Source: Syntrophales bacterium
Lineage (GTDB): Bacteria; Desulfobacterota; Syntrophia; Syntrophales; UBA2210
DNA: 64,000 bases
Assembly: GCA_963666365.2 (NCBI GenBank)
Contig: CAXXNF010000002.1
Coordinates: 384,001 to 448,000, forward strand
Direction: 5' to 3'
Shown here piece after piece: positions 41,898 to 63,275 of the stretch. The notes beneath the pieces were generated by a model. That model ran no database searches. It had not been told where the DNA came from and was given only the letters and a program-made list of their open reading frames with translations. The first letter of the stretch is position 1, and every line of letters begins with the position of its first letter. The position numbers were made by a program, and so were the translations under genes.

Positions 41898-42082
41898 TTT
41901 AAGGTTGCATACGGAGTTAGTCATAATTCCGCATACAATCCTGTTGGACTACGCCGCAATTCAGCGCTCCCTTATGGGGATTCAATAATGTGGCTTTGTC
42001 CTATGTTTCCATCAAAAATATCGATATGGTCCTTGATTGAATAGCGTATTTACGAAAAAGTGGGGCAAAAAAAGGCTCCTTT
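41898..42082 (-). mobile_element. Orphan copy of the downstream end of the YR-IS91 element
   Basis: About 185 bp colinear with 54270-54452, including GTTGGACTACGCCGC and the TTGCATACGGA...TCCGCATACAA hairpin. Confidence 0.85.
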
Positions 42083-44722: not shown

Positions 44723-45249
44723 CGGAAACCGGGATAAATGTCCCAGTTTATACGCTGTTACCTGAATATCGTAGGCTATGAGCCGCATAGTGCCATCGCA
44801 CTAGGCCGCGTTATCGAATCGGTACTGTATGCTCCAACAAAGCGGTAGGCTTCTGACAAATCGGCATTTTTTGCCGTTTTGTTTTGATGCCTGTGCTTCG
44901 AGGGTTTCAATCTGCTTGTAGGCGGCTTGCAAATCATCCAAAATGGATAATTTGTTTTGATACTCGTATAACTTATACAAATATATGTGTTCCCGTCCGG
45001 GACACTTATCGGCCTGACTTACTCCCACCTGTGAGTAAGTTAAATTCCTTGAAGGTGGAAGATTGCTTGCGGGTTAGGCCAACGTCGGAAAGGGTTTTTT
45101 TAACCCTGTTCCCCTCGGTAACAAGGTTTGCTTGATTTTCTGATTGCCTCGCTATTTCCCCCCGTTCCTGCCCTTCACGAATGAGCTTGCCTATTTCTCG
45201 GCTTTTGCCCAGACTTCGATTGCTTTCACTAATCTTGGTGGGGGGACAA

Positions 45250-45452
45250 GCGGCTCGCAAATCCGCAATTTTTACGGTTTTGTGGCGATAGGCGTCTTGC
45301 AAATCGGACAAAATGGCCGTTTTGGTGCGGTAGGCGGTTTGCAAATCCGAATTTAATTCGGTTTATATGCTGTCTGTAAATTGGGAATAATTCCCGTTTT
45401 GTCACGGTAGGCGGTTTGCAAATCCGACAGAATGGCGGTTTTGTCACGGTAA
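45250..45452 (-). repeat. Five-unit tandem array (periods 42, 42, 35, 42 bp), each unit with a variable 25-bp palindrome
   Basis: Palindromes start at 45258, 45300, 45342, 45377 and 45419; units read as YRDKTAILSDLQTA-type peptides on the minus strand. Confidence 0.9.
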
Positions 45453-46994: not shown

Positions 46995-48494
46995 TTAATA
47001 GGACTGCTGGACTCCATTAATATAGGAGCTAGTGATTGTGTAAGTATCACTTCCTACGACTTGTTTCACAGACCCAATACCCTTGTAGAACCAGTAATAT
47101 ACTGTATTCCCAGGTACAGCTTGACCCGTTTCAATCACATACTGATCATAACGGACGGAAACCTTAATGCAATCTAATAATGTTTGACTGCCTATTACAA
47201 GATCTTCTAATTCAAGAATAGTCACTGTTGAGGTGATATTAACATGGTACGCAGAACCAGAATAGATGAATGAATAAGTTGAATTAGAAACCTGGGTTGT
47301 ACCAATTTGAGTGTTGTTCGGCATTAACAACAGTGGCGTGCTAAAGTAAATATCGCCCATTAAATATGGCGATATTACATATTGTCCATAAATTTTTACA
47401 CCATTTACATCGGAGGTATAATAATCCTTTTGTCCGTCCCAATAGATCCTTTCCTTTGTAGGAACATCACCAATATATCTTGGTCCTGTTGTATAAGACC
47501 GCTGAATTAACCCTGTGGAAGAACACTTGAAATCCTGCCAGTCCCCAATATTCAGCGGAAAATAGTCAGAGGCAACAAAAGAAAGGATTTTGTTATTAAC
47601 CGTGATGGTAACCGTTTCAGAATCAAAAGCGCCTAATGAATTAGTCACTATGAAGGTAACGTCATATGTTCCAGCCTGAGAATAAGTGGGTGTCCAAGAA
47701 AAGGTTCTATTAGCGGTGTCAAAAATGGCCCCATTAGGCAGATTGAAAGCAAGGTAAGTCATGGGGGAATGATCTGCAGTAGACGCCACTAAAGTGAAAG
47801 ATAATTCTGATTTTTCATCAATTGATTTGTTCCCAATTGGATCTAACGCAGGGGAGTGGCTACGCAGACCTGATATTATTTGAAGGGCATAAATTGCTTC
47901 TACAACGTCTATCCTCCCATTTCTATTTATGTCCGATTCTTTATGGACTTCTGATTTTGGAGTAACCCCTGCATGAAGTTGAAGTGCAGCAATTCCATCT
48001 TCTATGCTAATTACGCCATCATTATCAATATCGCCGGTCAAAGAATTTCGCCCGGTATGTTGCAGATTTTTGTGAAACATGGGCCAAGAAGATTGAGCCA
48101 AGCCCAATGAACTGCCATTGATAGCATATAGCTTATCATCATATGACCCGACGTAAATAGTACCATCAGAGCTTATGGCTGGAAATGAGGATACATGACC
48201 TCCGGTCTGAAAAGCCCATTTTTGCGATCCATCTGGATTTATAGCATATAGATTATAATCGTCTGATCCCACATAGATCGTACCATCAGATCCTATTGCT
48301 GGCGAAGAAAATACATCACCTCCAGTTAGAAACGCCCATTTCAAGGCACCTTCTTCTGAAAATGATACAATTGGAAACAAAATAATTATCAGCAATAAAA
48401 GCGTCATCCAAAATAATAATTGAAATCTTGTTTTTTTCATCTTAGCACTTTTTAGGGTCAGAATCCCTTTACTTTCGATTGACCATGTTTTCAA
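46995..48494 (-). CDS. Secreted mosaic protein: PQQ-like repeats, dockerin-like domain, putative Ig domain, C-terminal beta domain
   Basis: SSPAIGSDGTIYVGS x2, WPMFHKNLQHTG, GDIDNDG...DINRNG, LPNGAIFD...FSWTP, YWFYKGIG. Confidence 0.8.
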   Translation of the reverse strand: MKTWSIESKGILTLKSAKMKKTRFQLLFWMTLLLLIIILFPIVSFSEEGALKWAFLTGGDVFSSPAIGSDGTIYVGSDDYNLYAINPDGSQKWAFQTGGHVSSFPAISSDGTIYVGSYDDKLYAINGSSLGLAQSSWPMFHKNLQHTGRNSLTGDIDNDGVISIEDGIAALQLHAGVTPKSEVHKESDINRNGRIDVVEAIYALQIISGLRSHSPALDPIGNKSIDEKSELSFTLVASTADHSPMTYLAFNLPNGAIFDTANRTFSWTPTYSQAGTYDVTFIVTNSLGAFDSETVTITVNNKILSFVASDYFPLNIGDWQDFKCSSTGLIQRSYTTGPRYIGDVPTKERIYWDGQKDYYTSDVNGVKIYGQYVISPYLMGDIYFSTPLLLMPNNTQIGTTQVSNSTYSFIYSGSAYHVNITSTVTILELEDLVIGSQTLLDCIKVSVRYDQYVIETGQAVPGNTVYYWFYKGIGSVKQVVGSDTYTITSSYINGVQQSY

Positions 48495-48588
48495 AGATTT
48501 TCCTCTGGTCTTTTATCTGATTCAATCTTCAAAACCATCCCAGGATTATCGAACCTTTTCCCCTATAGCCCGCGGCTTCTTTAACCAT

Positions 48589-48631
48589 GGATTAGTTCCG
48601 AACTCTCGTTCCTCGACTCGGGACTAATCCT
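48589..48631. repeat. Hairpin whose 3' 27 bp is repeated exactly at 49177-49203
   Basis: GGATTAGTTCCGA...TCGGGACTAATCC stem; CTCGTTCCTCGACTCGGGACTAATCCT at 48605-48631 and 49177-49203. Confidence 0.85.
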
Positions 48632-49057
48632 TTATTTGTTAGGCTCATTCTTTTCCTTCTTCTTTGTTTCTTTCTTTAGAAGATTCTCATAATAGATCTG
48701 CATAAGAAATCTATCTTTTGAAGAAACAGCGGACTTGCACTCGCCGGTTTCCAAGTTTAACACCTCGACATAATCATGTTGAGGCGTGCCGTCTTTGCCC
48801 TCTTCGTAGATTGTATATGAATACCTCAAAGTCTCCCCAGTTTCCTTGTTAAATCTGTAAACCGCAAATACATTAGACCACTTTTCCTTGCCAGCATAAT
48901 GAAACATGTATGGCTCAGATTTCTTATTTTCATCCAATCTGGCGCTTGCTTGATTTTTTGCCGATATATGCTCTTTGGTGAAGTAATGATGTTGAAAGAC
49001 GGCTACGTTCATAGCGATTGAAATAAGTAATACTGAGATTAAAAGGGTCGTTCTCAT
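48632..49057 (-). CDS. Hypothetical exported protein
   Basis: 141 aa, N-terminal hydrophobic helix, GGAG RBS. Confidence 0.7.
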   Translation of the reverse strand: MRTTLLISVLLISIAMNVAVFQHHYFTKEHISAKNQASARLDENKKSEPYMFHYAGKEKWSNVFAVYRFNKETGETLRYSYTIYEEGKDGTPQHDYVEVLNLETGECKSAVSSKDRFLMQIYYENLLKKETKKKEKNEPNK

Positions 49058-49136: not shown

Positions 49137-49195
49137 AAGGGTGCGCTCTTCGATCCACAAGATTTGACAATATCTCCTCGTTCCTCGACTCGGGA

Positions 49196-50488
49196 CTAAT
49201 CCTGTATTTGTTTCTTTTGCTGATCGGCTTTCTTTTTAGGCATAATTTCGATATCTGCCTTAGGATAAAATTCATGTTCATAAACAGAATTTATATTGAG
49301 ATCAAATTCATATCCGTTATAAGCTGCCTTGATAATTCTAAGAACAGGCTCCTGTGCACGTAATTCACCGATTCTTTCTTTGACATGATTTAAGAGATCA
49401 ACACGCAACTGATTTGGATAACGCAAATAAAAATTCTTGCTTTTTATATCAAGGAATATTTTGTCGTCTTTAGCCAACTTATAAGATTTCTTTATATCGA
49501 ATCTTGCCTTTATTGATGTTTTTGGTGCATATTTTTTTTGAAATTCTGCGAAAAGCTTCTCTATTTTTCTTTCTTTTAAGGCTGCTTTTTTCTTCTTTTC
49601 AGCTTCTTTCACTTGTAACATTCGTTCTTTCATTTCAGCCTTAGAAATTAGCCTACAATCGATTTTGCATCCACCCTCATAAATGCTAACAATTTTGGCA
49701 TCACACCCCGGAGCATTGCGTATAGTTTTAAAAAGTTCGTCAGGGCAAACGCCGATCTTACCTTCACCAAAATCAGTCCCTTGTCTATAAATGAATATTT
49801 CCCGTGTTCCTTCTGCGACCCAAAGGTTGACATCATCACCTTCTTTGCAATTTGAAAGCTCGAATAAGTTGAGCTCGTTGACGATAAACTCTATATGATT
49901 CGGCTGATTGTCGGAAACTGAATCGCTCTGCACAATATTCATTTCTGGCTTACTATCGGGAAGAGTCAAGTCCAAATCAAGCCATACACCATAACTTCCT
50001 TCTTTAAATGCTCCCCTATCCCATACAATTTTTGCTGGACAGATTACTACTCCCGTATGTTTATCAGATATCATTTTGCTGCGCCATATCCGGGCGTTTT
50101 TCCTACTGAGATGGCCAACAAGTTTTTGTTCAATTTCAACACTAACGGCGTAGGCGTCACTAGAATTCCCATCGTCGGGAATTACGTTTGCTTGTGTAAG
50201 TAAAGCTATTCCCTCCTCTCGTCTGTTACAAAAAATCTCCTCTAATGTCTCTTGGTAAAAGGATACTCCAACAACGATAACCTCGAACTTATCATGACTA
50301 GAGGGTGTCACCTTGTCATTCTGCAATAAATTTTCATCAATTTCAAAAAGTTGTTTATATTGGGCTGTTGTGAATGGTTTGTATTCAGTTGTTAAGCGTA
50401 GAGGTTTAAAATCGGCTTGATAGTCTTTATTAGGATTACCCTTGGGTTTCTTGTCTAAAAAATTCAATATTTTTTTCAACAAAGCCAT
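49196..50488 (-). CDS. HIRAN-like domain protein
   Basis: VVGVSFYQE...PDDGNSSDAYAVSV...VGHL resembles HIRAN; AT-rich. Confidence 0.65.
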   Translation of the reverse strand: MALLKKILNFLDKKPKGNPNKDYQADFKPLRLTTEYKPFTTAQYKQLFEIDENLLQNDKVTPSSHDKFEVIVVGVSFYQETLEEIFCNRREEGIALLTQANVIPDDGNSSDAYAVSVEIEQKLVGHLSRKNARIWRSKMISDKHTGVVICPAKIVWDRGAFKEGSYGVWLDLDLTLPDSKPEMNIVQSDSVSDNQPNHIEFIVNELNLFELSNCKEGDDVNLWVAEGTREIFIYRQGTDFGEGKIGVCPDELFKTIRNAPGCDAKIVSIYEGGCKIDCRLISKAEMKERMLQVKEAEKKKKAALKERKIEKLFAEFQKKYAPKTSIKARFDIKKSYKLAKDDKIFLDIKSKNFYLRYPNQLRVDLLNHVKERIGELRAQEPVLRIIKAAYNGYEFDLNINSVYEHEFYPKADIEIMPKKKADQQKKQIQD

Positions 50489-50553: not shown

Positions 50554-50617
50554 TCCCAACGCCCGGCATTAGCGGGCGCACGCTTTTTGCGATCCGCTGA
50601 ATGCCGATTTGTTAGAG
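50554..50617 (-). other. attC site (64 bp)
   Basis: TCCCAAC-GCCCGGCATTAGCGG GCGCACGCTTTTTGCGAT CCGCTGAATGCCG-ATTT-GTTAGAG; 9 bp after the cassette stop. Confidence 0.88.
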
Positions 50618-51097
50618 ACATTGTTCCTATCTTGGCTTTCGCTTCTTTGCGTCTTCCTCAAGCAGTTCTTTGGTTTGGTGAAGCATATCAAGAACACCCT
50701 TAGTTGCCTCATCAAATTTATGGCCTGGACCAGTAAAGAATGGCAACAGTGGTCTCTTTTCCTGAATGGCAGCATTGACCTGGCCAACGATATTCACAAA
50801 GTAATTCTTGGCGTGAATGCGTATTTGACTTGGAGGGAACCCCCTGTTCTGGATTCCTTCTGAAATGGTTATTATGCGCAGAAGAACATTATCGCTAATC
50901 GTCTCCATCCCGGTCCATGTATTCGATGGCAATAGGTGTTGGATTGTACCATGTTTCTTTGCCTCAAGTAGAAGTTTGTATCCGTTGGACACCTCTTCTA
51001 TCAGTGCCTCGACGACAGCTACAGCGTAACCGTACGACCAACTCATCTTTCGCTTGAACGCACATTGGATTATAGCTTCCCGTCATGAACACATTTC

Positions 51098-51427
51098 ATG
51101 ATTGGAGGATGCCCTATGACACAACAAGAACGCACCGCCCACTGGTCGGCCATCGTAGAGCGGCAGATCGCAAGCGGGATGAGCGGTCTGGCCTGGTGCC
51201 AGATGCATCAGATCAATACGGCAAGTTTCTACTCCTGGCGCCGGAAACTCACTGAACCGCAAGGACAACAGGGATTTATCGAACTTGCATCCTCGACGGC
51301 CGACTATGCCGGCATTCGCATTTGCATGGGGCCGCTTCTTTCCATCGAAGTGGAACGCGGCTTCGATCCCGTTACCCTGCGCACCGTTATTGAAACGCTT
51401 CATAATGGTTCCCCATGTTCGGCCTGA
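51098..51427 (+). CDS. tnpA: IS66 accessory protein TnpA
   Basis: W...SGMS...WC...FYSWRRKL HTH. Confidence 0.88.
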   Translation: MIGGCPMTQQERTAHWSAIVERQIASGMSGLAWCQMHQINTASFYSWRRKLTEPQGQQGFIELASSTADYAGIRICMGPLLSIEVERGFDPVTLRTVIETLHNGSPCSA

Positions 51428-51756
51428 CAGCATCGGCACGCATCTATCTTTATCGCAGCCCCTGCGACATGCGCAAGTCCTTCGACGGCCTGTGCGGCAT
51501 TGTCCGCGCCGAACTTAGCGCCGATCCCCTTTCGGGATCACTCTTCGTCTTCGTCAACCGGCGGCGGAACATGGTGAAGCTCCTGTACTGGGACAGCGAC
51601 GGCATGGCCATCTGGCTGAAACGTCTGGAGCAGGGGTCCTTCGTGCTGCCTTCCCGGCAGTCCCGCGACGGTCATATCGAGCGCCGGGATCTGGCCATGC
51701 TCCTTGAGGGAATCGTGCCGAAAAAAGTGGGAAAACGGTACAAAATATGTGCATAA
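51415..51756 (+). CDS. tnpB: IS66 accessory protein TnpB
   Basis: DMRKSFDGL, FVFVNRRR, LYWDSDG, KRLEQG. Confidence 0.93.
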   Translation: MFGLTASARIYLYRSPCDMRKSFDGLCGIVRAELSADPLSGSLFVFVNRRRNMVKLLYWDSDGMAIWLKRLEQGSFVLPSRQSRDGHIERRDLAMLLEGIVPKKVGKRYKICA

Positions 51757-51808
51757 AAAATAATATAAACACTTGACATTATTATAGTTATGTGCTATAC
51801 GCCCGCTC

Positions 51809-53419
51809 ATGATATTGACGGAAGCACAAGAGATTATCGACCGAAAAGATGCTGCCTGGATTCTGGAATTTGCCGCCCAAAAGGATGCCCAGATCGAAGC
51901 GCTTACCCAGAAGCTCGAATCCGCCCAGCGCCAGTTGACCACCCTGCAGCATCAGATGGAACAGCTGCTGAAACGGCTCTACGGCCGCAAGTCCGAAAAG
52001 ATCAACCCCGGTCAGCTGATGTTCGACGACATGGTGCTTCAATCATTAGAGCAGAATGCGGCGGTGAAAGCACAGTTCGAAGACGCTTCTGCCACAGAGA
52101 CTGTCAAGAAGCCCCGCAAGGCCTCCCGGCATCACGGCCGGGTTCCCATTCCGGAGCATCTCGAACGGGTGGAGATTCTGCTGGACGTGCCCGAGGATGA
52201 AAAGATCGATGCGGACACGGGCGCACCCCTGAAGGTCATTTCCGTGGAAGTCTCGGAGAAGCTGGAATACCGGCCGGGGAGACTGATCGTCAACGTCTAC
52301 AAGCGGCCCCAGTATGCGCTGCCGGAGGCATCGGAATCTACCGCCGGCGTCATCGCCGCCTCGCTGCCCGATCACCCCATCGCCAAGTGCAAAGCCGACG
52401 TGGGGCTGCTTTCTCATCTGATCGTCAGCAAGTACGCCGATCATCTGCCTCTCTACCGACAGAACAGCATTCTGGAGCGGGAAGGAGTGGACATTCCCCG
52501 GGCCACCCAAACCAGCTGGCTCATGCAGGTCTATGAGAGCATTCGTCCCTTGGAAACAGTGCTTCAAAAGGCCGTCCTTGAGAGGGACGTGCTCTTTACC
52601 GACGATACGCCCGTTCCTCTGCAGGTCAAGGGAAACGGCAAGGTAAAGAAGGCCCGTCTCTGGGTCTATCTGCGGGGCGGTCCGGGACCGCCGCTGACGG
52701 CCTATGACTTCTCCATTGATCGGAGCAAGACGCGCCCACTGGAGTATCTCAATGATTACCAGGGGTACGTCCATGCCGACGCCTACGGCGGCTACGACGA
52801 ACTTTTCAAAAAAGAAGAGATTATCGAAGTGGGTTGCTGGGCCCATACCAGACGGAAGTTCGACGAGGCGGTTTCATCGCGTCCTCAAGAGGCCACGGAC
52901 ATCCTTGCCCGCATCGCCCGGCTCTATCACGAGGTGGAGACCCCCTGTGCCGAGATGACGCCCGAGGAGCGGCGCCGTTTCCGGCAGGCGCATGCAACGC
53001 CGCTGCTTGAGGGAATCTTTGCAAAGATTGAGGAACTGAGGCCCCGGACGACGCCCTCGGAGCCGTTGCGGACGGCCATCAACTACGCCCTGAATCAGCG
53101 GGAGGCGCTCTGCCGCTATCTGAAAGACGGACGGTTAAGACCCGACAACAACCTGGCGGAAAACGCCATTCGGCCCATAGCGGTAGGTCGAAAAAACTGG
53201 CTCTTCGTGGGCAGCGAACGGGGCGGCCGGGCGGCGGCCCTTTATATGGGTCTCGTTCAATCTTGCAAAAACTGCGACGTCAACCCCTGGGAGTACTTTG
53301 ACGACATGCTTCGGCGGATCATGAGCCATCCCGTAAACCGCCTGCGGGAACTGCTTCCCGATCAGTGGAAGCCTGTGCCCAGGGATGAACGGGGCCTGAT
53401 CATCCAGGGAAAACAATAA
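51809..53419 (+). CDS. tnpC: IS66 DDE transposase TnpC
   Basis: KYADHLPLYRQ, DDTPV, CWAHTRRKF, DNNLAENAIR, GRKNWLF. Confidence 0.96.
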   Translation: MILTEAQEIIDRKDAAWILEFAAQKDAQIEALTQKLESAQRQLTTLQHQMEQLLKRLYGRKSEKINPGQLMFDDMVLQSLEQNAAVKAQFEDASATETVKKPRKASRHHGRVPIPEHLERVEILLDVPEDEKIDADTGAPLKVISVEVSEKLEYRPGRLIVNVYKRPQYALPEASESTAGVIAASLPDHPIAKCKADVGLLSHLIVSKYADHLPLYRQNSILEREGVDIPRATQTSWLMQVYESIRPLETVLQKAVLERDVLFTDDTPVPLQVKGNGKVKKARLWVYLRGGPGPPLTAYDFSIDRSKTRPLEYLNDYQGYVHADAYGGYDELFKKEEIIEVGCWAHTRRKFDEAVSSRPQEATDILARIARLYHEVETPCAEMTPEERRRFRQAHATPLLEGIFAKIEELRPRTTPSEPLRTAINYALNQREALCRYLKDGRLRPDNNLAENAIRPIAVGRKNWLFVGSERGGRAAALYMGLVQSCKNCDVNPWEYFDDMLRRIMSHPVNRLRELLPDQWKPVPRDERGLIIQGKQ

Positions 53420-53726
53420 TCAGTGCACCGTATTCCGGCGGTTGAATCCCGTAATCATATTATCAAAGAGCACCGGCTGTACCGGTTTTAGGTACAGCGT
53501 ACTTCATGTAAAATTCTTTTGCTATATGAGTTGGTCGTACGCTTACGCTACAGCAAGTTTTGAATCTTTCCGCTTCGTTCGATTGTCGTTTCTTAGCTCT
53601 TTCCATTGTGATAACAGAAATCCAACTGCCACGCCTGCTAGAGGTGCAAATACCTTGGAATTCACAATGTCCAGTGACCACTGGAGGATGATCTTCAACA
53701 ATTCCATTTTCTCCCGGTCCTTATGT

Positions 53727-53801
53727 CGCTAACGACGCGGTTAAGTGGGCGGCAAAGGAGCGAAGCGGATTTGCTGATCCATCTTCAACCGCTTGTTCGG
53801 A
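53727..53801 (-). other. attC site (75 bp)
   Basis: CGCTAAC-GACGCGGTTAAG..GGCAAA.GGAGCGAAGCGGA.TTTGCT...CTTCAACCGC-TT-GTTCGGA; abuts the stop at 53803. Confidence 0.88.
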
Positions 53802-53802
53802 A

Positions 53803-54243
53803 TTACTTAGCTTCCATTTCAGCAATTGCCTTCTTGTAAGCTTCCACCATTAATGTTTGAAGATGTGGCATGGCATCTGCCATGTATTGTCCGAATTTGG
53901 TCATGGCTGATTTACCTATGGAGGAACCATAGAAATTAGCCAGCGCATTCAGCTCGGCAGCGGTAAAATGCCTGACCAAAACATCCTTAATTATATCGGT
54001 GAGTTTCTCCAAATCGAGGTGTTTCGTCATCAAGCGTATGAATGGTCTTCGTTGTTCTTCGGGAAGCCGCACAGACATTCTTGTTACCATATCAGTGATC
54101 ATGTCCTTTGGCGGCATTACGGTTAGATAACGGTCGGCCTCCGATAGTCTGTTCTGTAAAGTGTCTTCGATTGCCTTGGTTTGAGCAAAGGCAATAGAGG
54201 ACAGGACTATCACGGCTATAATAGAAAAAACGAGTTTTCTCAT
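53803..54243 (-). CDS. DUF2059-like exported protein (first cassette after YR-IS91)
   Basis: Signal peptide; HFTAAELNALANFYGSSIGKS motif; start moved to the ATG at 54243 with a GGGAAG RBS. Confidence 0.85.
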   Translation of the reverse strand: MRKLVFSIIAVIVLSSIAFAQTKAIEDTLQNRLSEADRYLTVMPPKDMITDMVTRMSVRLPEEQRRPFIRLMTKHLDLEKLTDIIKDVLVRHFTAAELNALANFYGSSIGKSAMTKFGQYMADAMPHLQTLMVEAYKKAIAEMEAK

Positions 54244-54261
54244 GACTTCCCTTTCCATTTT

Positions 54262-54321
54262 TCCGAACATTTAAGGTTGTATGCGGAGTTAGCCATAATT
54301 CCGCATACAATCCTGTTGGAC
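54262..54321 (-). other. Atypical attC-like site at the downstream end of the YR-IS91 module
   Basis: Minus strand GTCCAAC-AGGAT-TGTATGCG-N16-CGCATACA-ACCTTAAAT-GTTCGGA. Confidence 0.65.
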
Positions 54322-54585
54322 TAAGCCGCAACTCGGTGTTTCCCTATGGGGATTCAATAACGCGGCTTCGTCCTATTTTTCCATTAAAATATCGATATGG
54401 TCATTGATTGAATAGCGTTTTTACGAAAAAGCCCGGCAAAAAATGCTCCTTTGTTGCTGTGAGCGCTGTTGATGCTGCCTTCGGTGGCGTGGATGTTGAG
54501 ACATATCTCCGAAAAGGGCGCACAGATCCGACGCAATCTTTTGGTGTTCCGATATTCGACTGCAATCATTGATCAACATCCCTTT

Positions 54586-55770
54586 CTATGGAGGCCACCT
54601 ACCGGTTTGTGACAGAAGAACCTCCTTCCGCACCATGATTCCCTTGCCGCAATGGGGGCATATCCGAAGATCAACGCCGGTCACCCGGAGGAATGTCTCT
54701 TCCCAGGGTTCTTTGGGGGAATCATTTTTCTCTGCCTGTTCCGGTATGCCGAGGAGCTTTTTGCACTGAGCAAGCTTTCTCTTTCGGTTCCGGTTGCTCA
54801 GCAGTCCGTAATAGCGGATCTTCATGAACTGATCGGGGAGAATGTGCAGGAGAAAGCGGCGGATGAACTCGAAGGCGTCGAGGGTCATGAGCTTGGTCTT
54901 GCCTTCCTTTGACGGATCGCGCACTCGGAAGGTAACATCGCGGGGGCCTATCCTAACAATTCTGTCGTTCGAGATGGCCACACGGTGGGTGTAGCGACCG
55001 AGATACTCGATGACATGTTTTGCGCTTCTGAAGGGTTCCTTGCAGTAGACAACCCACTCTTTGCGATAAAGATCGGCAACGAACTGTCGAAAGGTCGCCC
55101 GTTCCTTTAGGGCCTCGATCTTGCCGGGGAATCTCAGATCGGCTGCTTCGTAGGCTTTTTTGAGATAGTGAAGAAACTTACCCCGAAAGAGCCGGGAAAG
55201 AACCTTGACCGGCAGGAAGTAGTCCTCCTTCGCCGGAATCCATCGCTCCCCGTCAAGGGAAAGTCCGCCGCCTGTCACGATGCAGTGAACATGGGGATGA
55301 TCGATCAGGCTCTGCGACCAGGTGTGCAGGATGGCAATGCAGCCGATCTCAGCACCCAGATGACGATGATCGCGGGAAAGATCCATGATGGTCTCGGAGG
55401 CGGCCTTGAAAAGTATGTGGTAGAGGGTCTTCTGGTTCCGCAGGGCCAGCGGTCGAAGTTCCTGGGGAATCGTGAAAACGATATGCACGTAGGAAATGGG
55501 CAGCAAGTCCTTTTTTCTTGCCTCCAGCCACAGCTCTCGCTTCAGTCCCTGGCATTTGGGGCAGTGGCGATTCCGGCAGGAGTTGTAGGAGATCCGAACG
55601 GCACCGCAATGGTCGCATTCATCCACATGTCCGCCAAGCGCGGCGGTCCGGCATAGTTCAATGGCTCGCATCGCCCGGTGGTGTCGTCCGGCCATTCTGC
55701 CGCCATGGATATCTCGATAGGCCTCCCCAAATTCACGGAAGACCTGGGCCACTTCCGTGGTTCCACGCAT
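54586..55770 (-). CDS. IS91-family (HUH, Y2) rolling-circle transposase
   Basis: Zn-binding CRT..LGG...CDHC...NSCRNRHCPKC, HPHVH HUH motif, YLGRY Y2 motif, IRYYGLL. Confidence 0.95.
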   Translation of the reverse strand: MRGTTEVAQVFREFGEAYRDIHGGRMAGRHHRAMRAIELCRTAALGGHVDECDHCGAVRISYNSCRNRHCPKCQGLKRELWLEARKKDLLPISYVHIVFTIPQELRPLALRNQKTLYHILFKAASETIMDLSRDHRHLGAEIGCIAILHTWSQSLIDHPHVHCIVTGGGLSLDGERWIPAKEDYFLPVKVLSRLFRGKFLHYLKKAYEAADLRFPGKIEALKERATFRQFVADLYRKEWVVYCKEPFRSAKHVIEYLGRYTHRVAISNDRIVRIGPRDVTFRVRDPSKEGKTKLMTLDAFEFIRRFLLHILPDQFMKIRYYGLLSNRNRKRKLAQCKKLLGIPEQAEKNDSPKEPWEETFLRVTGVDLRICPHCGKGIMVRKEVLLSQTGRWPP

Positions 55771-55784
55771 GAAACGGCGACCCG

Positions 55785-56639
55785 CTAAAGAACGCTGTCC
55801 CGCGAGGCGGCGATCACGTCGAGGGGATTGGCGATCCGTTCAAAGTCCTTTCGAGAGAGGTGGAGGTAAACGGCCGTAGTCTTGGGGCTGGCGTGCCCCA
55901 GAAGCCGCTGTATGTGGTACAGGTCCGCCCCGTTCTCCAAGAGATGGGTGGCAAAGCTGTGGCGCAGGGTATGGACGCTCCCCGCTTTCCTAACGCCCGC
56001 TCTGAGCAGCGCATCTTTAAAGGCTTTCTGGACGCTTGACACTGAAAGAGGCGACCACTTGTCTTTGCCGAAGAAGAGCCAGTTCACGGGATGGCACTGC
56101 GACCAGTAAAACCGCAGTTCTTCCAGGGTCCGTTTGGCCAGCAGGGTGTAGCGGTCTTTGTTTCCCTTCCCCTGGCGTATGCGAATCACCATGCGTTCGC
56201 TGTCGATGTCGGACACTCTCAGATGCACGGCTTCATTGAGCCGCAATCCTCCCGAGTAGATCGTCATGAGAATGGCCCGATGCTTCAGATTGCCGACGAC
56301 CGAAAGAACGGCCCGCACCTCCTCCGGCGAAAAAACCGCAGGTAGGCTCTTTTGTTTCTTCGCACGAGGTATCCGGTAGGAGATCCAGTCGCGCTTCAAT
56401 GTCGTCTCATAGAAAAACTTCAGGGCGCTGTAAGTCTGACTCACCGTTGACTGAGAAGCCTTCTTCTCTTCGATGAGATAGTGAAGATAGGTCTTGATCT
56501 CTTCTTCTCCCAACGTCTCCGGCGACGCCCCAAAGTGACGCACAAATCTGCGCATGTGCTCCAGATAGCATTCCCGCGTCCTCCGGCTGAGGTGGCGCAG
56601 CTCCATATCGCGTTTCATCTGATCGCGCAGTCTTCCCAT
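55785..56639 (-). CDS. Tyrosine recombinase with N-terminal SAM-like domain (IntI-related, no IntI insertion)
   Basis: YSGGLR, KGNKDR, HTLRHSFATHLLE, LLGH...TTAVY; short segment between WLF and the HxLR box; ATG 56639 with AGGAG RBS. Confidence 0.92.
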   Translation of the reverse strand: MGRLRDQMKRDMELRHLSRRTRECYLEHMRRFVRHFGASPETLGEEEIKTYLHYLIEEKKASQSTVSQTYSALKFFYETTLKRDWISYRIPRAKKQKSLPAVFSPEEVRAVLSVVGNLKHRAILMTIYSGGLRLNEAVHLRVSDIDSERMVIRIRQGKGNKDRYTLLAKRTLEELRFYWSQCHPVNWLFFGKDKWSPLSVSSVQKAFKDALLRAGVRKAGSVHTLRHSFATHLLENGADLYHIQRLLGHASPKTTAVYLHLSRKDFERIANPLDVIAASRDSVL

Positions 56640-56985
56640 ATCTTTTCTCCTTTCTTGCATGAATGATGAATCATCCTTACAAAAAGAAGAACGATCAGGA
56701 CAGCAACAATGTACGCTATTCAATTGTCAAAGAACGACCATTTTTACTTAAAATACCGCCGCGTAGCGGCTTAGTTCAACTATTGTTTATACAGTTTCTG
56801 TGTAAATCCTTTACATAGCTGATTCAGCTATGTAATACATATTTTAATTGCGTTAAAAATCTTTATAAGTTGCTGCAATAAATAGGATATTGTGAAATTC
56901 GTCATTTATTTGAGTGTTTTATACAGAAACTGCGTAATACACCTTTCCGGTATGACTATCGCAATATTGATCTGAGCTGACCACC

Positions 56986-57450
56986 AAAAACAAAAGCCCT
57001 CTCTCATTTTGAGAAACACGGCTTCGATGATCAGACCATAATCCCCCCTTGGGTTATAGCTGTTTCAATTCAAGATCGGCAAGGTATGTTAATCAGTAAC
57101 TCTGTTAATGACGTTTTGTCAAGGGATATTGCCCTTTTAATTCATCCGATACAATCTAACCCACTTCTATCGCGACACAATCCCACAATGTGGGAATTTG
57201 CAATCAGCATGTCAACAGATAGAACCCCTCGAAGCCCAAGATATGAGTCAACCCCTACCTTACCCCTCAGAGTTTGGTTTCTTTCCTGGCACCCCCCTAA
57301 AACACCCACGCCAGAGCAAAGGAAAGGGTATATGAGATATGGCGCTACGGTTTGCGGTAGGGCATGTGAAGATAAAGGGGGCAGTCCGGTATGTCGCAAT
57401 CAACACGCCCGTCGATATAGTAGCCCGAGCACTCGCAGCATTTTGCAAGG
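56986..57450. repeat. Island repeat R1, copy 3 (in its intact context next to the satellite core)
   Basis: Colinear with copies 1 and 2. Confidence 0.9.
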
Positions 57451-57551
57451 ATCGCCTGTTTAAAACTGAGTCGCTGTCCCGCGTGATGCTTCAAAAGCTC
57501 GCGTTTTCCCTTAGCTCTGGGCGCTTTTTCAACGTTTTCGATGTGCTTCAT
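57345..57551 (-). CDS. Small Cys-rich protein (CxxC...CxxxxCPL)
   Basis: 68 aa, overlaps the upstream stop codon; a diverged relic is conserved at 30115-30225. Confidence 0.8.
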   Translation of the reverse strand: MKHIENVEKAPRAKGKRELLKHHAGQRLSFKQAILAKCCECSGYYIDGRVDCDIPDCPLYLHMPYRKP

Positions 57552-57814
57552 TTCGCCCCACCTTCAGCAAGTTTGCGAAGGAGCTCTTTTTGATTTCGAT
57601 AATCGGCCGAGAGAATTTCAAGAGTTATGTCATCGTGCCGCCACTTTCGCCCGTCTTTTCTGGGGAAGCGTTCGTCGAAATCCTCGCACAGGATATCGTA
57701 TAGCTCGGCGTCCGACATCTGTTCCACCGGATTTGCCCCTGGAGGCTTTAGCTTCTCTTCGAGTTTCGCGAGTCTGTTTTTATTGTCTTTCATTCTCCCT
57801 CGCCTCTCTTTCAT
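57548..57814 (-). CDS. Hypothetical protein
   Basis: Part of an overlapping small-gene operon; start probably the internal MKDNK. Confidence 0.65.
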   Translation of the reverse strand: MKERRGRMKDNKNRLAKLEEKLKPPGANPVEQMSDAELYDILCEDFDERFPRKDGRKWRHDDITLEILSADYRNQKELLRKLAEGGAK

Positions 57815-58004
57815 TCAGCCGTTTTTCAAGTGTGGTTATTCTGTCCTCTATTTCCGAATCTGCGAGGATTTTATGAAGTATTGACACGAGATAGCCGAGT
57901 TTACCGGCTGTCGCAGCATCCACTTCGCCACTGTCTAGCCGGTTAACCAGCCCCGAAAGATATCGCCGCACATCGTTCAGATTGTTTAATCGCTTCATTG
58001 TCAC
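57780..58004 (-). CDS. Small helical hypothetical protein
   Basis: EIEDRITTLEKRL coiled tail; AAGGCGG RBS; operon context. Confidence 0.7.
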   Translation of the reverse strand: MTMKRLNNLNDVRRYLSGLVNRLDSGEVDAATAGKLGYLVSILHKILADSEIEDRITTLEKRLNEREARENERQ

Positions 58005-58125
58005 CGCCTTTTTACTCTTTTTTGTATGCTAAAGTGACTCTAAGGCCATGTTTTTGTTGTAAAAGGTGAGCTGTACCCCCTCTCTCTTTTACGCGAATGC
58101 TTCCACAACTTCAGGTCAAGCAAGC

Positions 58126-58917
58126 TCATAACACCGCCCGGATGCTCGAATATCGTTTTGGAAATTCAGTAATCGTTTCGCGCTCCGAAAAAACCCACTC
58201 AATTACTTCCGGATCTACCCCTAACGCTGCAACATCCATTGCAAACTTCATGGGGTTCGCGTCATATATCTTGAATAACTTACCCCAACCCAGGCAAAAG
58301 CGATTGAACTCATCAAATTTAGGAAGATCGGCCTTGATTTCGTTTAGCGCCCGCCCAAGATTGCGTTCCGCACGTATCAATTTTATCGCCGCCTCATTTT
58401 GCAGTTCTTTTAGGCGATCAACGATTTGCTTGACAATTCTGATTTGCTCATCTCTGGGAAGGGTATCATCTAGGTCATCTAGCTCTTTCCTCAGCGCCTC
58501 AATCTCTGACCGCACATCATCATAATGCGCCGATTTTTCACCCTCATCGTGGCTAAGTAGCTTATAGGCGCTTGTCAAATCGGAAACTGTTTCCGTTTTC
58601 AGCCTGTCACGCTCTCGATAAAGCCGCATATAACTACGCGCCGTCCGTGGCGTAAAAGGCAAATTGCCTTCAATCCACTTTTCAAATTCTCCGTGCTGAA
58701 GTTCAGACTTTGCAGACAGAAGCAGCTCTCCGATCCTGATTGCATCGGCAAGGGCATTTTTCATATATCCGCCGACTTGTTCATGAAGATGAATAATGGC
58801 GGCAACTCTTTCTTTCTGGCTCAGCTCACTGTCAAGGTTCGCCGCCTGCATAGCTTCTTTCGTGCCGCCTCTGTCATACACTTCCTGAATCTTGTTTGCT
58901 CTGCTCTGCTCATCCAT
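58126..58917 (-). CDS. DUF3102-like DNA-binding protein
   Basis: AIRIGELLLSAKSELQHGEFEKWIEGNLPFTPRTARSYMRLY is the DUF3102-type signature; GGAG RBS. Confidence 0.8.
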   Translation of the reverse strand: MDEQSRANKIQEVYDRGGTKEAMQAANLDSELSQKERVAAIIHLHEQVGGYMKNALADAIRIGELLLSAKSELQHGEFEKWIEGNLPFTPRTARSYMRLYRERDRLKTETVSDLTSAYKLLSHDEGEKSAHYDDVRSEIEALRKELDDLDDTLPRDEQIRIVKQIVDRLKELQNEAAIKLIRAERNLGRALNEIKADLPKFDEFNRFCLGWGKLFKIYDANPMKFAMDVAALGVDPEVIEWVFSERETITEFPKRYSSIRAVL

Positions 58918-59063
58918 TGTTCTGCTCTCCTTTGGGTCTGCTCTGGTGTCCTAGCTTTAGGGTTTTGGATAGGAAAGAAAGTCTATAATGAGACTTTCTT
59001 CCTATTCCCCAAAAACCCCCTATGCGGTTTAGGACATAGGCCGAATAGGACAGAAATTTCCGT

Positions 59064-60671
59064 CTATGGGAACCAGTCCCCGATCGGCCGCATTTCGGCG
59101 CCTCCAATCAATTTGTAATGCCTTTTCAGGCCTCGAGGGTTCCGTGAATTCCGCCATGCTTTGCAATCAATGATCTTTATACGGTTTGCCCTCGTTTCTG
59201 GTTCCCAGTCTAAGGCAATATACAGGCGCGCCTTTTCACGTGAGAAATCAGCGCCCCTTCCAACGTCCTTTCCGTCGGCCTTTTGCAACCCCAGGAATGC
59301 TATTCCTTTCCTCAATTTGTCATGAATAGCACCAATCGTTAAGGCAATTTTAGAGAAGTCCTCTGCGATTTCGAGGAAGTCAACGATCCATATTGCATCT
59401 GAGCCATCAATGAAGTCCGCTGGCATCTGACTTGATTTCAGGTTGTACACCCTCATGTGACTTGCCCACTCTTCAAGTTGTGTATCTTTGAAGGCCTGCA
59501 GACGCTTTCGCATCTCATTTGCGCCCATTTCGGAATTCAGGTAAACTACTCGGCGACGCCCCAGGTTCAAATGAGCCAAGTTTAGAAGGAATGCAGTCTT
59601 TCCCGCCTCCTTGCTTCCGGCAACAACGGCAATGTTTCCGGGGTATAGAATCCCCTGCTCTGCAAGGCCCAGTGGCAAAGCAATGTCGTATTCCTTCCCG
59701 TCGGCGCTGAGAAAGTCCATTTCTTCAAAATCCTTGTCAACGCGCCGGTAAACACCCGCCTGCTTTCCATACTTTTCGATGAGCCCCTCTTCCTTGAGCC
59801 GGTGAAAGATAACCCTGATCTGCCGTTTCTCTTCCGGTGAAACGCTTTGAAACTCTCTGTGACACTCTGAAACGTTTATGAAACCCTCTTGAAACGTCAG
59901 CCAGTCACGAACCTGCTCAACAAGATTTCCATCACGCCGCTTTGCACGCTTCAATGCACTGTCAATTTTTGCATTTACTTCGCTTATCGGGAACGGTGGA
60001 TTGCATGAAAAAGCAAGTCGTTGCAATATGTTAGTGGTTAGCTCTGTTTGACATCCGCCTTTGACGAGGCAGCTCGCAATGTGAAAAAGGGTGTCATCCC
60101 GCCGCCCTTCCATGAAACGCTCTGAAACGTCTGAAACGCTTTGAAACGTAGGTGTTTCATGCCCCTTATATTTTAATTTATTTAATAAGGCATCGGGGCA
60201 CGGTGCAGGTGCAGTCTCGTGAATGCTCAGTCCTTCAAGCCACTGGTACGCCTTGCCTGTCCCATTCACAGAAGGCGGTGCGATCACGTAGCCCCCGTCC
60301 CCACGCACATCAACACCAGGGATAATGCCCGTCGCATTGCCGATGCTCTGGCCCGGAGGCATGGCGAGGTAAATGTGGTACCCCCTGGGCGTTTTTGCAA
60401 TAGCGGTGATAAACGCATCGGGCAACAGCTCCTGAATGCGCTGGTATGCTTCCTCGTTATCGCAATCGACGACGAACACCCCTGATATTGCGCCGGTCAC
60501 AACCCCGATCATCGCATTGGGCCATCGCGTCCACCAATCTTGCAGCTCCTCTGCTGTCGCTTGTCTGCTCTGGTACTGTTCCCATTTGATGAACGGGCTC
60601 TTGTCGGGCCGCACAGGGATCACGGAAAATCCCCTTCCGTTGTATTGCAAGGCTGAATCGATCATATTCAT
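59064..60671 (-). CDS. Bifunctional primase-polymerase + PriCT + P-loop (RecA-like) helicase
   Basis: VVDCD, TPRGYH, DVRGDGGYVIAPPS, EGRRDDTLF, GSKEAGKT Walker A, IVDFLE Walker B; start at 60671 (ATGA overlap). Confidence 0.9.
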   Translation of the reverse strand: MNMIDSALQYNGRGFSVIPVRPDKSPFIKWEQYQSRQATAEELQDWWTRWPNAMIGVVTGAISGVFVVDCDNEEAYQRIQELLPDAFITAIAKTPRGYHIYLAMPPGQSIGNATGIIPGVDVRGDGGYVIAPPSVNGTGKAYQWLEGLSIHETAPAPCPDALLNKLKYKGHETPTFQSVSDVSERFMEGRRDDTLFHIASCLVKGGCQTELTTNILQRLAFSCNPPFPISEVNAKIDSALKRAKRRDGNLVEQVRDWLTFQEGFINVSECHREFQSVSPEEKRQIRVIFHRLKEEGLIEKYGKQAGVYRRVDKDFEEMDFLSADGKEYDIALPLGLAEQGILYPGNIAVVAGSKEAGKTAFLLNLAHLNLGRRRVVYLNSEMGANEMRKRLQAFKDTQLEEWASHMRVYNLKSSQMPADFIDGSDAIWIVDFLEIAEDFSKIALTIGAIHDKLRKGIAFLGLQKADGKDVGRGADFSREKARLYIALDWEPETRANRIKIIDCKAWRNSRNPRGLKRHYKLIGGAEMRPIGDWFP

Positions 60672-60916
60672 ATTGCACCACCTTTTCGCAACTCGGATCG
60701 TAGCACTTTCTCTACCTTCTCGGGCGTTTCGGAATCGTTGCAGCATCGCTGGCATAGGCAGTAGCGAATTAGTCGCGTTTTATCCTCAACCCCGCCGTAC
60801 GCTGCGGGTTCGTCAGGCAGAAAGACGCCGATCACCGCCGCGGCACCGCCGCAAATGAGACATGAATCGCCATCCCGCGGGTGCTTCATCAGTTCGAGGG
60901 CCTCATTCGTCGTCAT
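60668..60916 (-). CDS. Small zinc-finger-like protein
   Basis: CLIC...YCLCQRC; coupled to the primase start. Confidence 0.7.
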   Translation of the reverse strand: MTTNEALELMKHPRDGDSCLICGGAAAVIGVFLPDEPAAYGGVEDKTRLIRYCLCQRCCNDSETPEKVEKVLRSELRKGGAI

Positions 60917-61059
60917 GATCTTCCGCGTCTCCTTTGCTAAAGGCTGTGAACATTCGGTCGCTTATCGCTTGCAGGCGAGCAGCCTCGACGTCGCTCGCCG
61001 CTTCTATATAAATCTGTTCGGGCGTCATCTGCTCGTCGAAACTGAATAATATCATACGT

Positions 61060-61257
61060 TTATCCATTGTTTTCGCCCTCCAAGATTTTCTTGATGTCGG
61101 CGAGCGGCCAGAGCAGCCGGCGGTTTGGTAATTTCACGGGTTTAATTTTTAAATAATGTCCATTGATGCAGAGTCCCCTCCGCATGGTTTCATCTTCGAC
61201 GCCCAGCATCGGCGCAGCTTCCCTTGTCGTAATGTGTGTTATCCGATTTCGTTCCAT
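61060..61257 (-). CDS. AlpA/excisionase-like DNA-binding protein
   Basis: TTREAAPMLGV...KPVKLPNRRLLWP winged-helix pattern; first gene of the replication operon. Confidence 0.75.
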   Translation of the reverse strand: MERNRITHITTREAAPMLGVEDETMRRGLCINGHYLKIKPVKLPNRRLLWPLADIKKILEGENNG

Positions 61258-61420
61258 CCCAGCACCCCCTTTTTCAGTTGATTTGACAACTATGTCTGAA
61301 TTTGGACGGAAGAAATCTTCCGTGCGACGGAAGAAACGGGGAAGAAGTTAATTAAATCGGGATGTTAAAAAAAATAAAGCCGATGAAAAAAAAGTCCACC
61401 GGCTTCAAAGAAAGGAAAAA

Positions 61421-62611
61421 TCAGGATATGATGAGCCATGCAATTGAGGCAGTATATCTTAAGCCATAGCCGCCGTCAGCAACGATGTGTTTATTAAAAT
61501 GTTCGGAGAGTTCGGGTAGTCCAGCTTTTATGTTTTTAAAACTTGCAGTAAGGGCTTTTTTTACGTTTGACTGTGCTTTCTTGGCATTTGGGTCGATCTT
61601 TTTTTCTGGCAACCCCTTCAGTTTTCGCATCATTACGTCAATTTCTTCATCAAATTCGCGCCGCTCAAAGTCGGAATCGACTTTCTCTTTCTCGGCGATG
61701 AGCTGCCGCAATTGCCTCCCCAATGCGTCGCGGCTTTCGTCGGTAAGTTCTTCAGATATACCACCAGATTTATGCAACCCTTCTGCAAGCGCCTGTGAGT
61801 CAGAGATTGCGTCGTTTTGATTAGGGTTATATAATCGATAGAGTTCCAGGCACGAGACAGATTGGCCAATCCGGTTTGGTTCCAAAAGATAAGAGATATA
61901 CCGAATCCCAGCCAAATCTTTAACAGTTGTTAGCTTGCCATCGAAGCTGATTTCCCAGTATTGACCGCATCGCTTTAGGTAGTTCCCGCTGATGTTAACC
62001 TCAACGCTCTCATCTCTTTTTTTCTCTAGGTCCCCGGGGGGTTCCGCCCCGTACAGGATTATGTGCGGTTCGTCAAGCATTACGCCCCGGTTTCCCTCGG
62101 CCAAACGTCTTGTGAAAAATATCCATTCTTTTTTATAATCGGCTCCCGGAGGGTTAAGGTAAATATCTGCGAATCTGGCGTCCATAAGTGCGAGGTACGA
62201 ATCTCTATTTTTGATCGTTTCGGAGCATTCCAGAAAATCGTAAATCGTGGTTTTCTGTGATTTCAACTGCGCGATATGCTCATTTGCGCCCTCGTACAAC
62301 TGTGCCTGAAGCGGGTGAAGTTCGCTGGTTTTCCCGTAGAGCTTTTTTTGAATCATGCGCAACTCGGCGTCGGTGCCCCCCCGTTCGACGGCTTCCTGTA
62401 AAGGGTATTCAAACGGTTTTTCCTCACCGATATCGAAGACAACGCAATATTTTACCGGGTGCTGCAAATGCCTTACCTCTGCGTAGGGGCTTGAATAGTT
62501 GTGAAGTGTAATGCTCTCAACAGTAGCAAAGTCATTGCACTTCTCGGCCCACCTCCGTGCGTACATTTCAAGCAGTTCTATCTTGAAGGGAAATTGATTC
62601 TTGTTGTCCAT
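61421..62611 (-). CDS. Hypothetical protein with a C-terminal regulator-like domain
   Basis: 396-aa ORF; YWEISFDG...KDLAGIRYISYLL...KAQSNVKKAL...LSEHF. Confidence 0.7.
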   Translation of the reverse strand: MDNKNQFPFKIELLEMYARRWAEKCNDFATVESITLHNYSSPYAEVRHLQHPVKYCVVFDIGEEKPFEYPLQEAVERGGTDAELRMIQKKLYGKTSELHPLQAQLYEGANEHIAQLKSQKTTIYDFLECSETIKNRDSYLALMDARFADIYLNPPGADYKKEWIFFTRRLAEGNRGVMLDEPHIILYGAEPPGDLEKKRDESVEVNISGNYLKRCGQYWEISFDGKLTTVKDLAGIRYISYLLEPNRIGQSVSCLELYRLYNPNQNDAISDSQALAEGLHKSGGISEELTDESRDALGRQLRQLIAEKEKVDSDFERREFDEEIDVMMRKLKGLPEKKIDPNAKKAQSNVKKALTASFKNIKAGLPELSEHFNKHIVADGGYGLRYTASIAWLIIS

Positions 62612-62641
62612 TGCGTATCCCCCCGCAATTATCCCAGGTTG

Positions 62642-62699
62642 TGAAGGGGCAGCCGGTGGGATATGTCCGGTCTTCGGGTAGCTTGCCCTATCCCCTTCA
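62642..62699 (+). ncRNA. Three-way-junction structured element resembling the int-alpA RNA motif
   Basis: TGAAGGGG [CCGG..GGA..CCGG] TCTTC [GGGTA..TGCCC] TAT CCCCTTCA, located between the integrase and the AlpA-like gene. Family match from memory; strand uncertain. Confidence 0.5.
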
Positions 62700-62717
62700 G
62701 TCTTATTGTTTTGACTG

Positions 62718-63266: not shown

Positions 63267-63275
63267 TCCTCCTTT

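Follow-up and report, generated by a model that had tools for sequence, protein, structure and literature searches.

An IS91-family insertion sequence carrying an IntI-like recombinase gene at the attI site of an integron without intI in a Syntrophales bacterium

The closest described relatives of the element reported here are insertion sequences (ISs) of the IS91 family in which an open reading frame (ORF) for a tyrosine recombinase (YR) lies upstream of the transposase gene; ISShvi3 carries such an integrase ORF. In Shewanella integrons, the IS91-like ISShvi3 was located in variable regions and once adjacent to an attC, according to the ISShvi3 passage of PMC9229058. Beyond that passage, our literature search returned no paper on homing of YR-IS91 elements to attI or attC, and none on exact insertion at attI G↓TT (the arrow marks the joint), on dif-like dyad targets or on the IntI-likeness of the YR of this subgroup. 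We analysed a 64,000-nucleotide stretch of a Syntrophales bacterium genome (contig CAXXNF010000002.1, positions 384,001 to 448,000; hereafter the window) in which a YR gene and an IS91-type transposase gene head an array of integron-like cassettes. Positions 56780-54266, read on the minus strand and termed the module, are very probably an IS91-family IS with a YR gene, seated at the attI G↓TT of a classical integron that has lost intI; the neighbouring cassettes would be ordinary IntI-type cassettes, and the cassette-like signature of the module would be the inverted repeat of the IS subgroup.

The module resembles ISShvi3-type elements in gene order (YR, then Y2 transposase), in length (about 2.5 kb) and in being multi-copy. 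The copy in the window was designated copy A, and its parts and the adjoining attI are as follows.

54266..56780, minus strand: module copy A, an IS91-family element of the subgroup with a YR gene, 2515 bp from GTT to GTT
56758..56780, minus strand: left end, G↓TTGAACTAAGCCGC (left inverted repeat, IRL), overlapping a mini-hairpin GCCGC-TAC-GCGGC, recognized from the sequence
55785..56639, minus strand: YR, 284 amino acids, IntI/Xer-like, without the IntI-specific insertion (Pfam Phage_integrase, 2.2e-37; Phage_int_SAM_4, 1.7e-24)
54586..55770, minus strand: HUH/Y2 transposase of the IS91 family, 394 amino acids (Y2_Tnp, PF04986, 1e-63; Zn_Tnp_IS91, PF14319, 4.4e-31)
54266..54373, minus strand: right, ori-like end, with hairpin 1 (GGACGAAGCCGC...GCGGCTTAGTCC) containing the right inverted repeat (IRR, 54329-54315), hairpin 2 (54314-54274), spacer TAAAT and GTT
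56781..56942, minus strand: attI of a classical integron, of the type with attI behind the intI stop codon, ending ...CTGTATAAACAATAG↓TT, recognized by homology alignment

A DNA search of the same genome returned a second copy of the module, copy B, at C2:1855361-1857878 (C2 coordinates lie outside the window; the assembly consists of two contigs and is 94% complete). Copies A and B differ by 16 mismatches in 2515 bp and have identical ends, and similarity between them ends immediately beyond GTTGAAC... at the left end and ...AAATGTT at the right end. Their flanks differ, only the NTT triplet being common, and no long target duplication was present. A metagenome contig with a 97% relative of the module gave an alignment spanning exactly 54266-56780. 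On the evidence of its copies, the module is a discrete, self-contained mobile unit bounded by GTT.

The transposase scored 465.3 bits against NF033538 (cut-off 125) and includes the N-terminal zinc-binding domain of IS91-family transposases. Its translation contains the HUH motif HPHVH at residue 158 and the two-tyrosine motif YLGRY (YxxxY type) at residue 256, which we take to be catalytic here as in IS91. Folded as single-stranded DNA, hairpin 2, which follows the IRR, forms a 17-bp stem with one bulged base (-15.5 kcal/mol, z -5.0, none of 200 shuffles equal), and the right end as a whole (114 nt) gave -27.7 kcal/mol (z -7.2). As a discrete element whose ori-like end, 3′ of the transposase gene, bears a hairpin, and which lacks a long duplication, the module belongs to the IS91 family, not to IntI. 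The original prediction had placed the genes and the hairpin where Pfam, NCBIfam and folding also place them, and had read the module as an integrated circular cassette on account of a start complementary to its own end. The complementarity itself is real, GTTGAACTAAGCCGC (56780-56766) and GCGGCTTAGTCCAAC (54329-54315) pairing at 14 of 15 positions on the minus strand; its meaning changed once related elements were compared.

Relatives of the module YR were sought in one genome per species, which gave 149 stretches encoding YR relatives, of which 79 loci were kept (L numbers below). A Y2 transposase gene lay directly downstream of the YR gene in 74 of the 79, and contig ends cut three of the other five. 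Two loci from Spirosomaceae (L075 and L090) encode the YR alone (48% identity), the 6 kb downstream being free of a Y2 transposase gene. Many related loci were stand-alone contigs of about 2.5 kb, as expected of multi-copy IS elements, and the nearest relative in the genome collection has a YR at most 64% identical to that of the module. In most related loci the left-end motif N↓TTGAACTAAACCGCT(T/G)CGCGGTGG precedes the YR gene by 105-223 bp. Both ends are conserved across phyla: the left as N↓TTGAACTAAACCGC..., its first base varying among copies of one genome, and the right as GCGGYTYAGTYCAAC (IRR), a hairpin, 7-8 nt and then N. Among the related right ends, 58 of 63 have a paired arm of at least 10 nt, the arms having 29 distinct sequences, and IRL and IRR were complementary at 12-15 of 15 positions in 46 of the 52 loci with both ends found. 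Because these ends are conserved throughout the subgroup, most copies of which lie outside integrons, the complementarity between the start and the end of the module is the terminal repeat of an IS rather than the mark of a cassette. Covariation between IRL and IRR was considered as a sign of single-strand pairing and rejected, as two ends bound by one protein also co-vary. Relatives were present in 460 plasmid records, Clostridium included, in which the NCBI Prokaryotic Genome Annotation Pipeline (PGAP) labels the recombinase an integrase (several as 'site-specific tyrosine recombinase/integron integrase') beside an 'IS91 family transposase' where listed. This genome also has a second, more distant YR-IS91 family, two copies of which show the same end architecture (GTTCAAGTAAGCCGCTACGCGGC ... 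GCGGCTTCTTGAAC, hairpin, TGTATTTG).

The DNA abutting the left end of the module was identified by comparison with relatives having intact integrons. Positions 56942-56781, which end ...GTATAAACAATAG↓TTGAAC, align block by block with the DNA after the intI stop codon in L102 and L103; they also align with L024 and the copy B locus that carries an intI remnant. L102 and L103 encode intact IntI (469 and 458 bits); an attI of about 175 bp comes right after the stop codon, is unoccupied and is directly followed by the first cassette. The attI ends there are ATATATACACTG↓TTGTG and ATATAAACAATG↓TTGGG, with the pattern ...ATATA(T/A)ACA(C/A)TG↓TTG. This alignment places the module at the crossover point (G↓TT) of a classical attI.

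The intI gene expected before this attI is replaced by a repeat of about 310 bp. As the original prediction had stated, the window has no canonical IntI: its only TIGR02249 matches are the module's own YR, below the cut-off. The search of the whole assembly bore this out genome-wide, none of the 17 TIGR02249 matches exceeding the cut-off. Among the 41 genomes searched (40 related ones and this one, itself without), 12 encode an IntI over the cut-off. Two intI remnants were detected elsewhere in the genome. Copy B begins about 165 bp after the first, a 36-residue IntI C-terminal remnant 72% identical to the IntI of L024, and heads a cassette array with canonical attC sites. The second (C2:1791613-1791738) is followed by an unoccupied attI and a cassette. 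The remnants share a truncation point and are 13.5% different. Of the features of an integron platform, attI (by homology) and attC cassettes are present here, and intI is absent from window and assembly save for the two remnants. At C2:558k, a further attI-like stretch carries only a palindromic copy of the module hairpin, so that this genome has the element at two attI sites and its terminal hairpin at a third.

Several additional observations concern these attI regions. An element of about 220 nt lies directly upstream of both intI remnants (C2:1791430-1791660 and C2:1858126-1858348); its copies are 92% alike and better conserved than the remnants, and it could represent the terminus of an element that truncated intI at a single fixed position. 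The hairpin at C2:558286-558338 is perfectly palindromic and AAC/GTT flanked, and lies within a truncated attI before a cassette-like ORF. The repeat of about 310 bp occurs at 56990-57300, 44442-44723 and 29745-30071 of the window and at C2:558080-558155 and C2:1675651-1675810, with 76-87% identity between copies. It contains a TTGACA-type promoter-like stretch and a terminator-like hairpin, lies directly upstream of attI, in the place of intI, at two loci, and gave no match to an Rfam family.

For the subgroup as a whole, 45 distinct insertion sites were reconstructed. The joint over these sites is N↓TT, with T at +1 in 40, T at +2 in 43, A at +3 in 27, and G (26) or A (14) at -1; a (T/A)A motif is located at -9/-8. 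Integron attI or attC sites make up at least 12 of the 45, those of copies A and B of this genome included. An IntI gene stands beside the element in L024 (465 bits), L092 (358) and L089 (268), and 2.1 kb away in L036, which is outside the 45; the 3′ half of an attC lies left of the element in L023 and L031, and a cassette with its own attC lies right of it in L024, L035, L039, L042, L083 and L091. An automated test for a cassette with its own R′′ box downstream has low power (7/37 sites versus 29/357 in the control), and only individually inspected hits were used; L100 was dropped as a cassette-flanked site, being a probable chance hit. No integron context was seen at the other 33 sites, the flanks of several being too short to judge. 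Many other targets are dif-like dyad cores, such as GCGATAA-ATAGCC-TTATCGC in L086 (7/7). The dyad symmetry of the target arms exceeded that of shuffled pairings only at a 6-bp spacer (2.93 versus 2.36 matches of 7, z 3.9, 0/2000 permutations), and 11 of the 45 sites had a dyad score of at least 5/7. These data show that the subgroup is strongly biased to integron attI/attC sites and dif-like dyad cores.

The YR of the module was then compared with IntI. Its best NCBIfam match is TIGR02249, with 216 bits against a curated cut-off of 265; the match comes in two segments, leaving profile positions 178-238 uncovered. The true IntI of L024 scores 464.7. The best PDB match is VchIntIA (2a3v; 145 bits), with XerA scoring 116 bits. 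In the alignment to VchIntIA the usual catalytic patches are present, and the additional domain specific to IntI, between patches II and III, is represented by 25 residues versus 67 in VchIntIA (IntI4), in agreement with the insertion-less YR originally described. A 36-row tree, thinly sampled and with long branches flagged, separated a group of the module YRs with 11 IntI from an unrelated YR and both Xer proteins of the host (support 98/96), IntI forming one clade (100/99) and the module YRs an unresolved grade. The module YRs, as the best TIGR02249 matches of the genome, are its closest thing to IntI.

Taken together, the module is best regarded as a parasite of the cassette array, not its engine. 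The original prediction had offered, as its alternative, an element parasitising attC arrays served by a distant IntI; the parasite is the better fit, and the IntI in question has decayed, as the remnants show, rather than being distant. The identity and location of the element follow directly from the alignments, and we infer from target and end features which enzyme (YR, HUH transposase or host IntI) makes the joint. A reaction in the style of integrons, carried out by the element's own enzymes, may be proposed. The HUH transposase would release a single-stranded circle of the element, in which IRL, IRR and the hairpin could fold into an attC-like site. The insertion-less, IntI-like YR of the element would join this site to a double-stranded core (attI, attC or dif-like ATAA-N6-TTAT) at N↓TT, and replication would complete the insertion. 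In this form, the original idea that the HUH enzyme supplies single-stranded DNA and the YR integrates at GTT cores may hold for the movement of the element itself. For all steps jointly, this proposal is tentative, with a chance somewhat short of even. The dyad targets with a 6-bp spacer, the bias to IntI/Xer-type sites, the strict retention of the YR, its best PDB match to IntI and the tree grouping argue for a joint made by the YR.

Other observations count against the account given here. An HUH nick would explain the position of the joint no less well than a YR crossover, and IS91 proper, which has no YR, also needs a TT-centred tetranucleotide (GTTC/CTTG) beside its ori end. The dyad score was below 5/7 in 34 of the 45 sites and 0 in five of them (L028, L044, L056, L100 and others), and the sites used in the dyad test are not phylogenetically independent. 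The boundary rule fails for L036, L038 and L049, whose left end is different and longer; L038 and L049 are still within the 45. The last 108 bp of the module (GGACGAAGCCGC...AAATGTT) occur as an extra tandem copy after copy B (C2:1855253-1855360) that reads GTT↓GGAC where the internal source reads ATA↓GGAC, for which a plain N↓TT crossover gives no explanation; this unit may have arisen as a miniature derivative or from an abortive rolling-circle event. Because the genome is 94% complete, an IntI could also lie in unassembled DNA. Neither a circle junction nor an empty-site allele was seen among contigs of four public runs (region 53600-57400), although contigs cannot show absence; the mobility of the module is therefore deduced from its copies. 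The one long apparent joint in these contigs (54310 to 57026) was discarded as a circle or empty site, since it is accounted for by C2:558k, where a hairpin copy lies near the repeat of about 310 bp. The same 108 nt were also present as a separate contig piece in run X16.

Alternatively, the Y2 transposase alone would place the element by rolling-circle transposition, with N↓TT as the HUH nick, the hairpin plus 7-8 nt as an oriIS resembling a relaxase nic region, and the YR in an accessory role such as multimer resolution or regulation. This explanation has a real but minor chance of being correct. It is consistent with the HPHVH and YLGRY motifs, with a hairpin conserved as a structure (58/63 ends, 29 arm sequences) in a hairpin-plus-spacer geometry, with the insertion of IS91 proper beside GTTC/CTTG without a YR, and with the partial ori-end repeats in tandem (108 bp behind copy B, 17 bp in L038), which resemble products of premature termination or re-initiation. 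HUH enzymes, however, read single strands and need no dyad targets, yet symmetry was detected at exactly the 6-bp spacer; across phyla, 74 of 79 loci retain an intact YR gene in the same gene order; and the bias to sites of IntI/Xer-type recombinases would be a coincidence.

Entry of the module into integrons as a cassette is unlikely; in that case its folded ends would mimic attC, a host IntI would insert it at attI or attC, and its own enzymes would serve only for movement elsewhere. In copy A, copy B, L024, L092 and L089 the element comes first after attI, the place at which IntI inserts new cassettes; R′′/R′-like boxes (GTCCAAC/GTTGAAC) surround the hairpin with one bulged base; and IntI is common among relatives, as counted above (12/41 genomes). 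The module end, however, lacks the symmetric unpaired spacer of attC, and many sites outside integrons have the same N↓TT joint, the relatives including the 460 plasmid records. Copies A and B differ by 0.6% and the intI remnants, with their common truncation point, by 13.5%, which suggests, weakly, that the element moved here after intI had decayed. That the YR and the IS91 transposase have taken over from IntI and, as a self-mobile platform, operate the entire cassette array, as originally predicted, is highly improbable: the assembly has no intact IntI, the YR is the best TIGR02249 match of the genome and the module heads two arrays, yet the arrays have a classical attI homologous to those of intact integrons in relatives, with the module inserted at its G↓TT in the window, intI remnants exist, no sequence is shared between the module end and the attC sites next to it, the YR is without the insertion that IntI uses on folded attC, and most family members lie away from cassette arrays (at least 12 of 45 in integrons).

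The cassettes behind the module and the other IS-derived features of the window are listed below.

53733..54267, minus strand: cassette 1, DUF2059-like secreted protein (2.7e-10), ORF 54243-53803, attC at about 53802-53727
50554..53732, minus strand: cassette 2, ORF of unknown function split by an IS66 element, attC at 50621-50554
51026..53546, plus strand: IS66-family element (tnpA/tnpB/tnpC) in cassette 2 (DDE_Tnp_IS66, 1.4e-89; TnpB_IS66, 3.1e-35), with an 8-bp duplication GCTGTAGC
49177-49210, opposite to the array: further right-end fragment (34 bp) of the second YR-IS91 family
48461..48638, plus strand: solo right end (95.5%) of the second YR-IS91 family of the genome, opposite in orientation to the array, abutting G↓TTAGGC
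41898..42082, minus strand: solo decayed right end of the module (88%), then a small ORF and a canonical attC (41656-41535)

Cassette 1 likely starts at ATG 54243, behind the ribosome-binding stretch GGAAAGGGAAG; ATG 54270 overlaps the end of the element. The IS66 element in cassette 2 had not been noted in the original prediction. The cassette-type complementarities that had been claimed for the two units held on the minus strand: the start of cassette 1, GTTCGGAA (54268-54261), pairs with its own R′′ box TTCCGAAC (53802-53795) at 8 of 8 positions, and that of cassette 2, GTTAGCGACAT (53733-53723), with ATGTCTCTAAC (50621-50611) at 10 of 11. Five co-oriented attC sites had also been proposed. 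All five are on the minus strand; three are canonical (at about 53802-53727, 50621-50554 and 41656-41535), one is the attC-like end of the module and one is truncated (GCCTAAC near 48640). The three canonical sites, folded as single-stranded DNA over 53802-53725, 50617-50554 and 41660-41531, form imperfect bulged hairpins (z -2.05, -3.08 and -1.68, respectively) and have no sequence in common with the module end. With these three attC sites, called from sequence and folding, and no IntI in the window, the array has the composition of a cluster of attC sites lacking an integron integrase (CALIN; at least two attC, no intI nearby). A fold-based attC scan recovered two of the three known sites and was used for no counts, and the Rfam scan of the window, in which an attC model is not included, returned only a tRNA. 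The G↓TTAGGC beside the solo end at 48461..48638 is the bottom-strand reading of the attC R′′ box GCCTAAC, and solo ends of both IS families are found at cassette borders in the window. Beyond the array, positions 57300-64000 encode a primase-polymerase/helicase (59064-60755), a DUF3102 protein, a helix-turn-helix regulator and a phage-type integrase (63276-63998, running past the window end), and this part is probably an integrative element. The motif GATTTGCAA(A/G)CCGCCTAC is repeated three times in 540 bp between small ORFs at 44900-45440.

These results remove a false lead, in that the module is not a new kind of integron, and reveal a widespread IS91 subgroup with an IntI-like recombinase that homes to the exact crossover of attI and attC and to dif-like cores. 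Such elements can cap or split arrays and part cassettes from their promoter, and they can be mistaken in annotation for integron integrases because PGAP gives them an 'integron integrase' name. The pairing of an HUH enzyme, which makes single-stranded DNA, with an IntI-like YR is a testable model for building single-strand recombination systems. Should the element carry out the proposed integron-style reaction by itself, which is less likely than not, recombination of folded single-stranded DNA would need no IntI insertion, and YR-HUH elements could stand near the ancestry of integron integrases, given that the IntI clade joins the module YRs against the two host Xer proteins in the small tree (98/96).

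The insertion at attI, the dif-like dyad targets and the decayed intI context are the new findings here. The module can be compared with several known systems. Canonical IS91, IS801 and IS1294 have the same transposase family, a hairpin end downstream of the transposase gene, no long target duplication and, likewise, a TT-centred target beside the hairpin end (GTTC/CTTG for IS91); unlike them, the module subgroup has a YR, terminal repeats complementary at 12-15 of 15 positions in 46 of the 52 loci and targets resembling tyrosine recombinase cores. With integrons and CALINs the module shares the G↓TT joint, a folded, imperfect hairpin end with AAC/GTT boxes and a recombinase closest to IntI, and the surrounding array is a true integron remnant without intI. 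Its YR, unlike that of integrons, is without the IntI insertion, and its gene lies within the mobile unit, next to that of an HUH enzyme. The module end resembles attC in having R′′/R′ boxes (GTCCAAC/GTTGAAC) within the 14/15 repeat and a 17-bp stem between them, and differs in its one-sided spacer (TAAAT, a 5-nt bulge) and a single bulged base, judged by eye, in place of the symmetric unpaired spacer.

In CTX-phage-type integrative mobile elements exploiting Xer (IMEX), folded single-stranded DNA is recombined with dif by Xer. Parasites that home to integron recombination sites at a fixed position are represented by IS1111-attC elements and group IIC-attC introns, as described in the relevant passage of PMC9229058. 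The module subgroup is alike in homing to integron sites; the enzymes differ (a DEDD transposase and a reverse transcriptase/ribozyme, respectively, in those parasites), and, unlike them, the subgroup also uses attI and dif-like sites. Integration of the CTX-phage-type IMEX is mentioned in PMC9345347, and the likeness to the module would lie in a folded single-stranded site joined to a double-stranded dyad core, ATAA-N6-TTAT. The module would differ from these IMEX in that its recombinase is encoded by the element, its targets are many pseudo-sites and its single strand would come from the HUH transposase.

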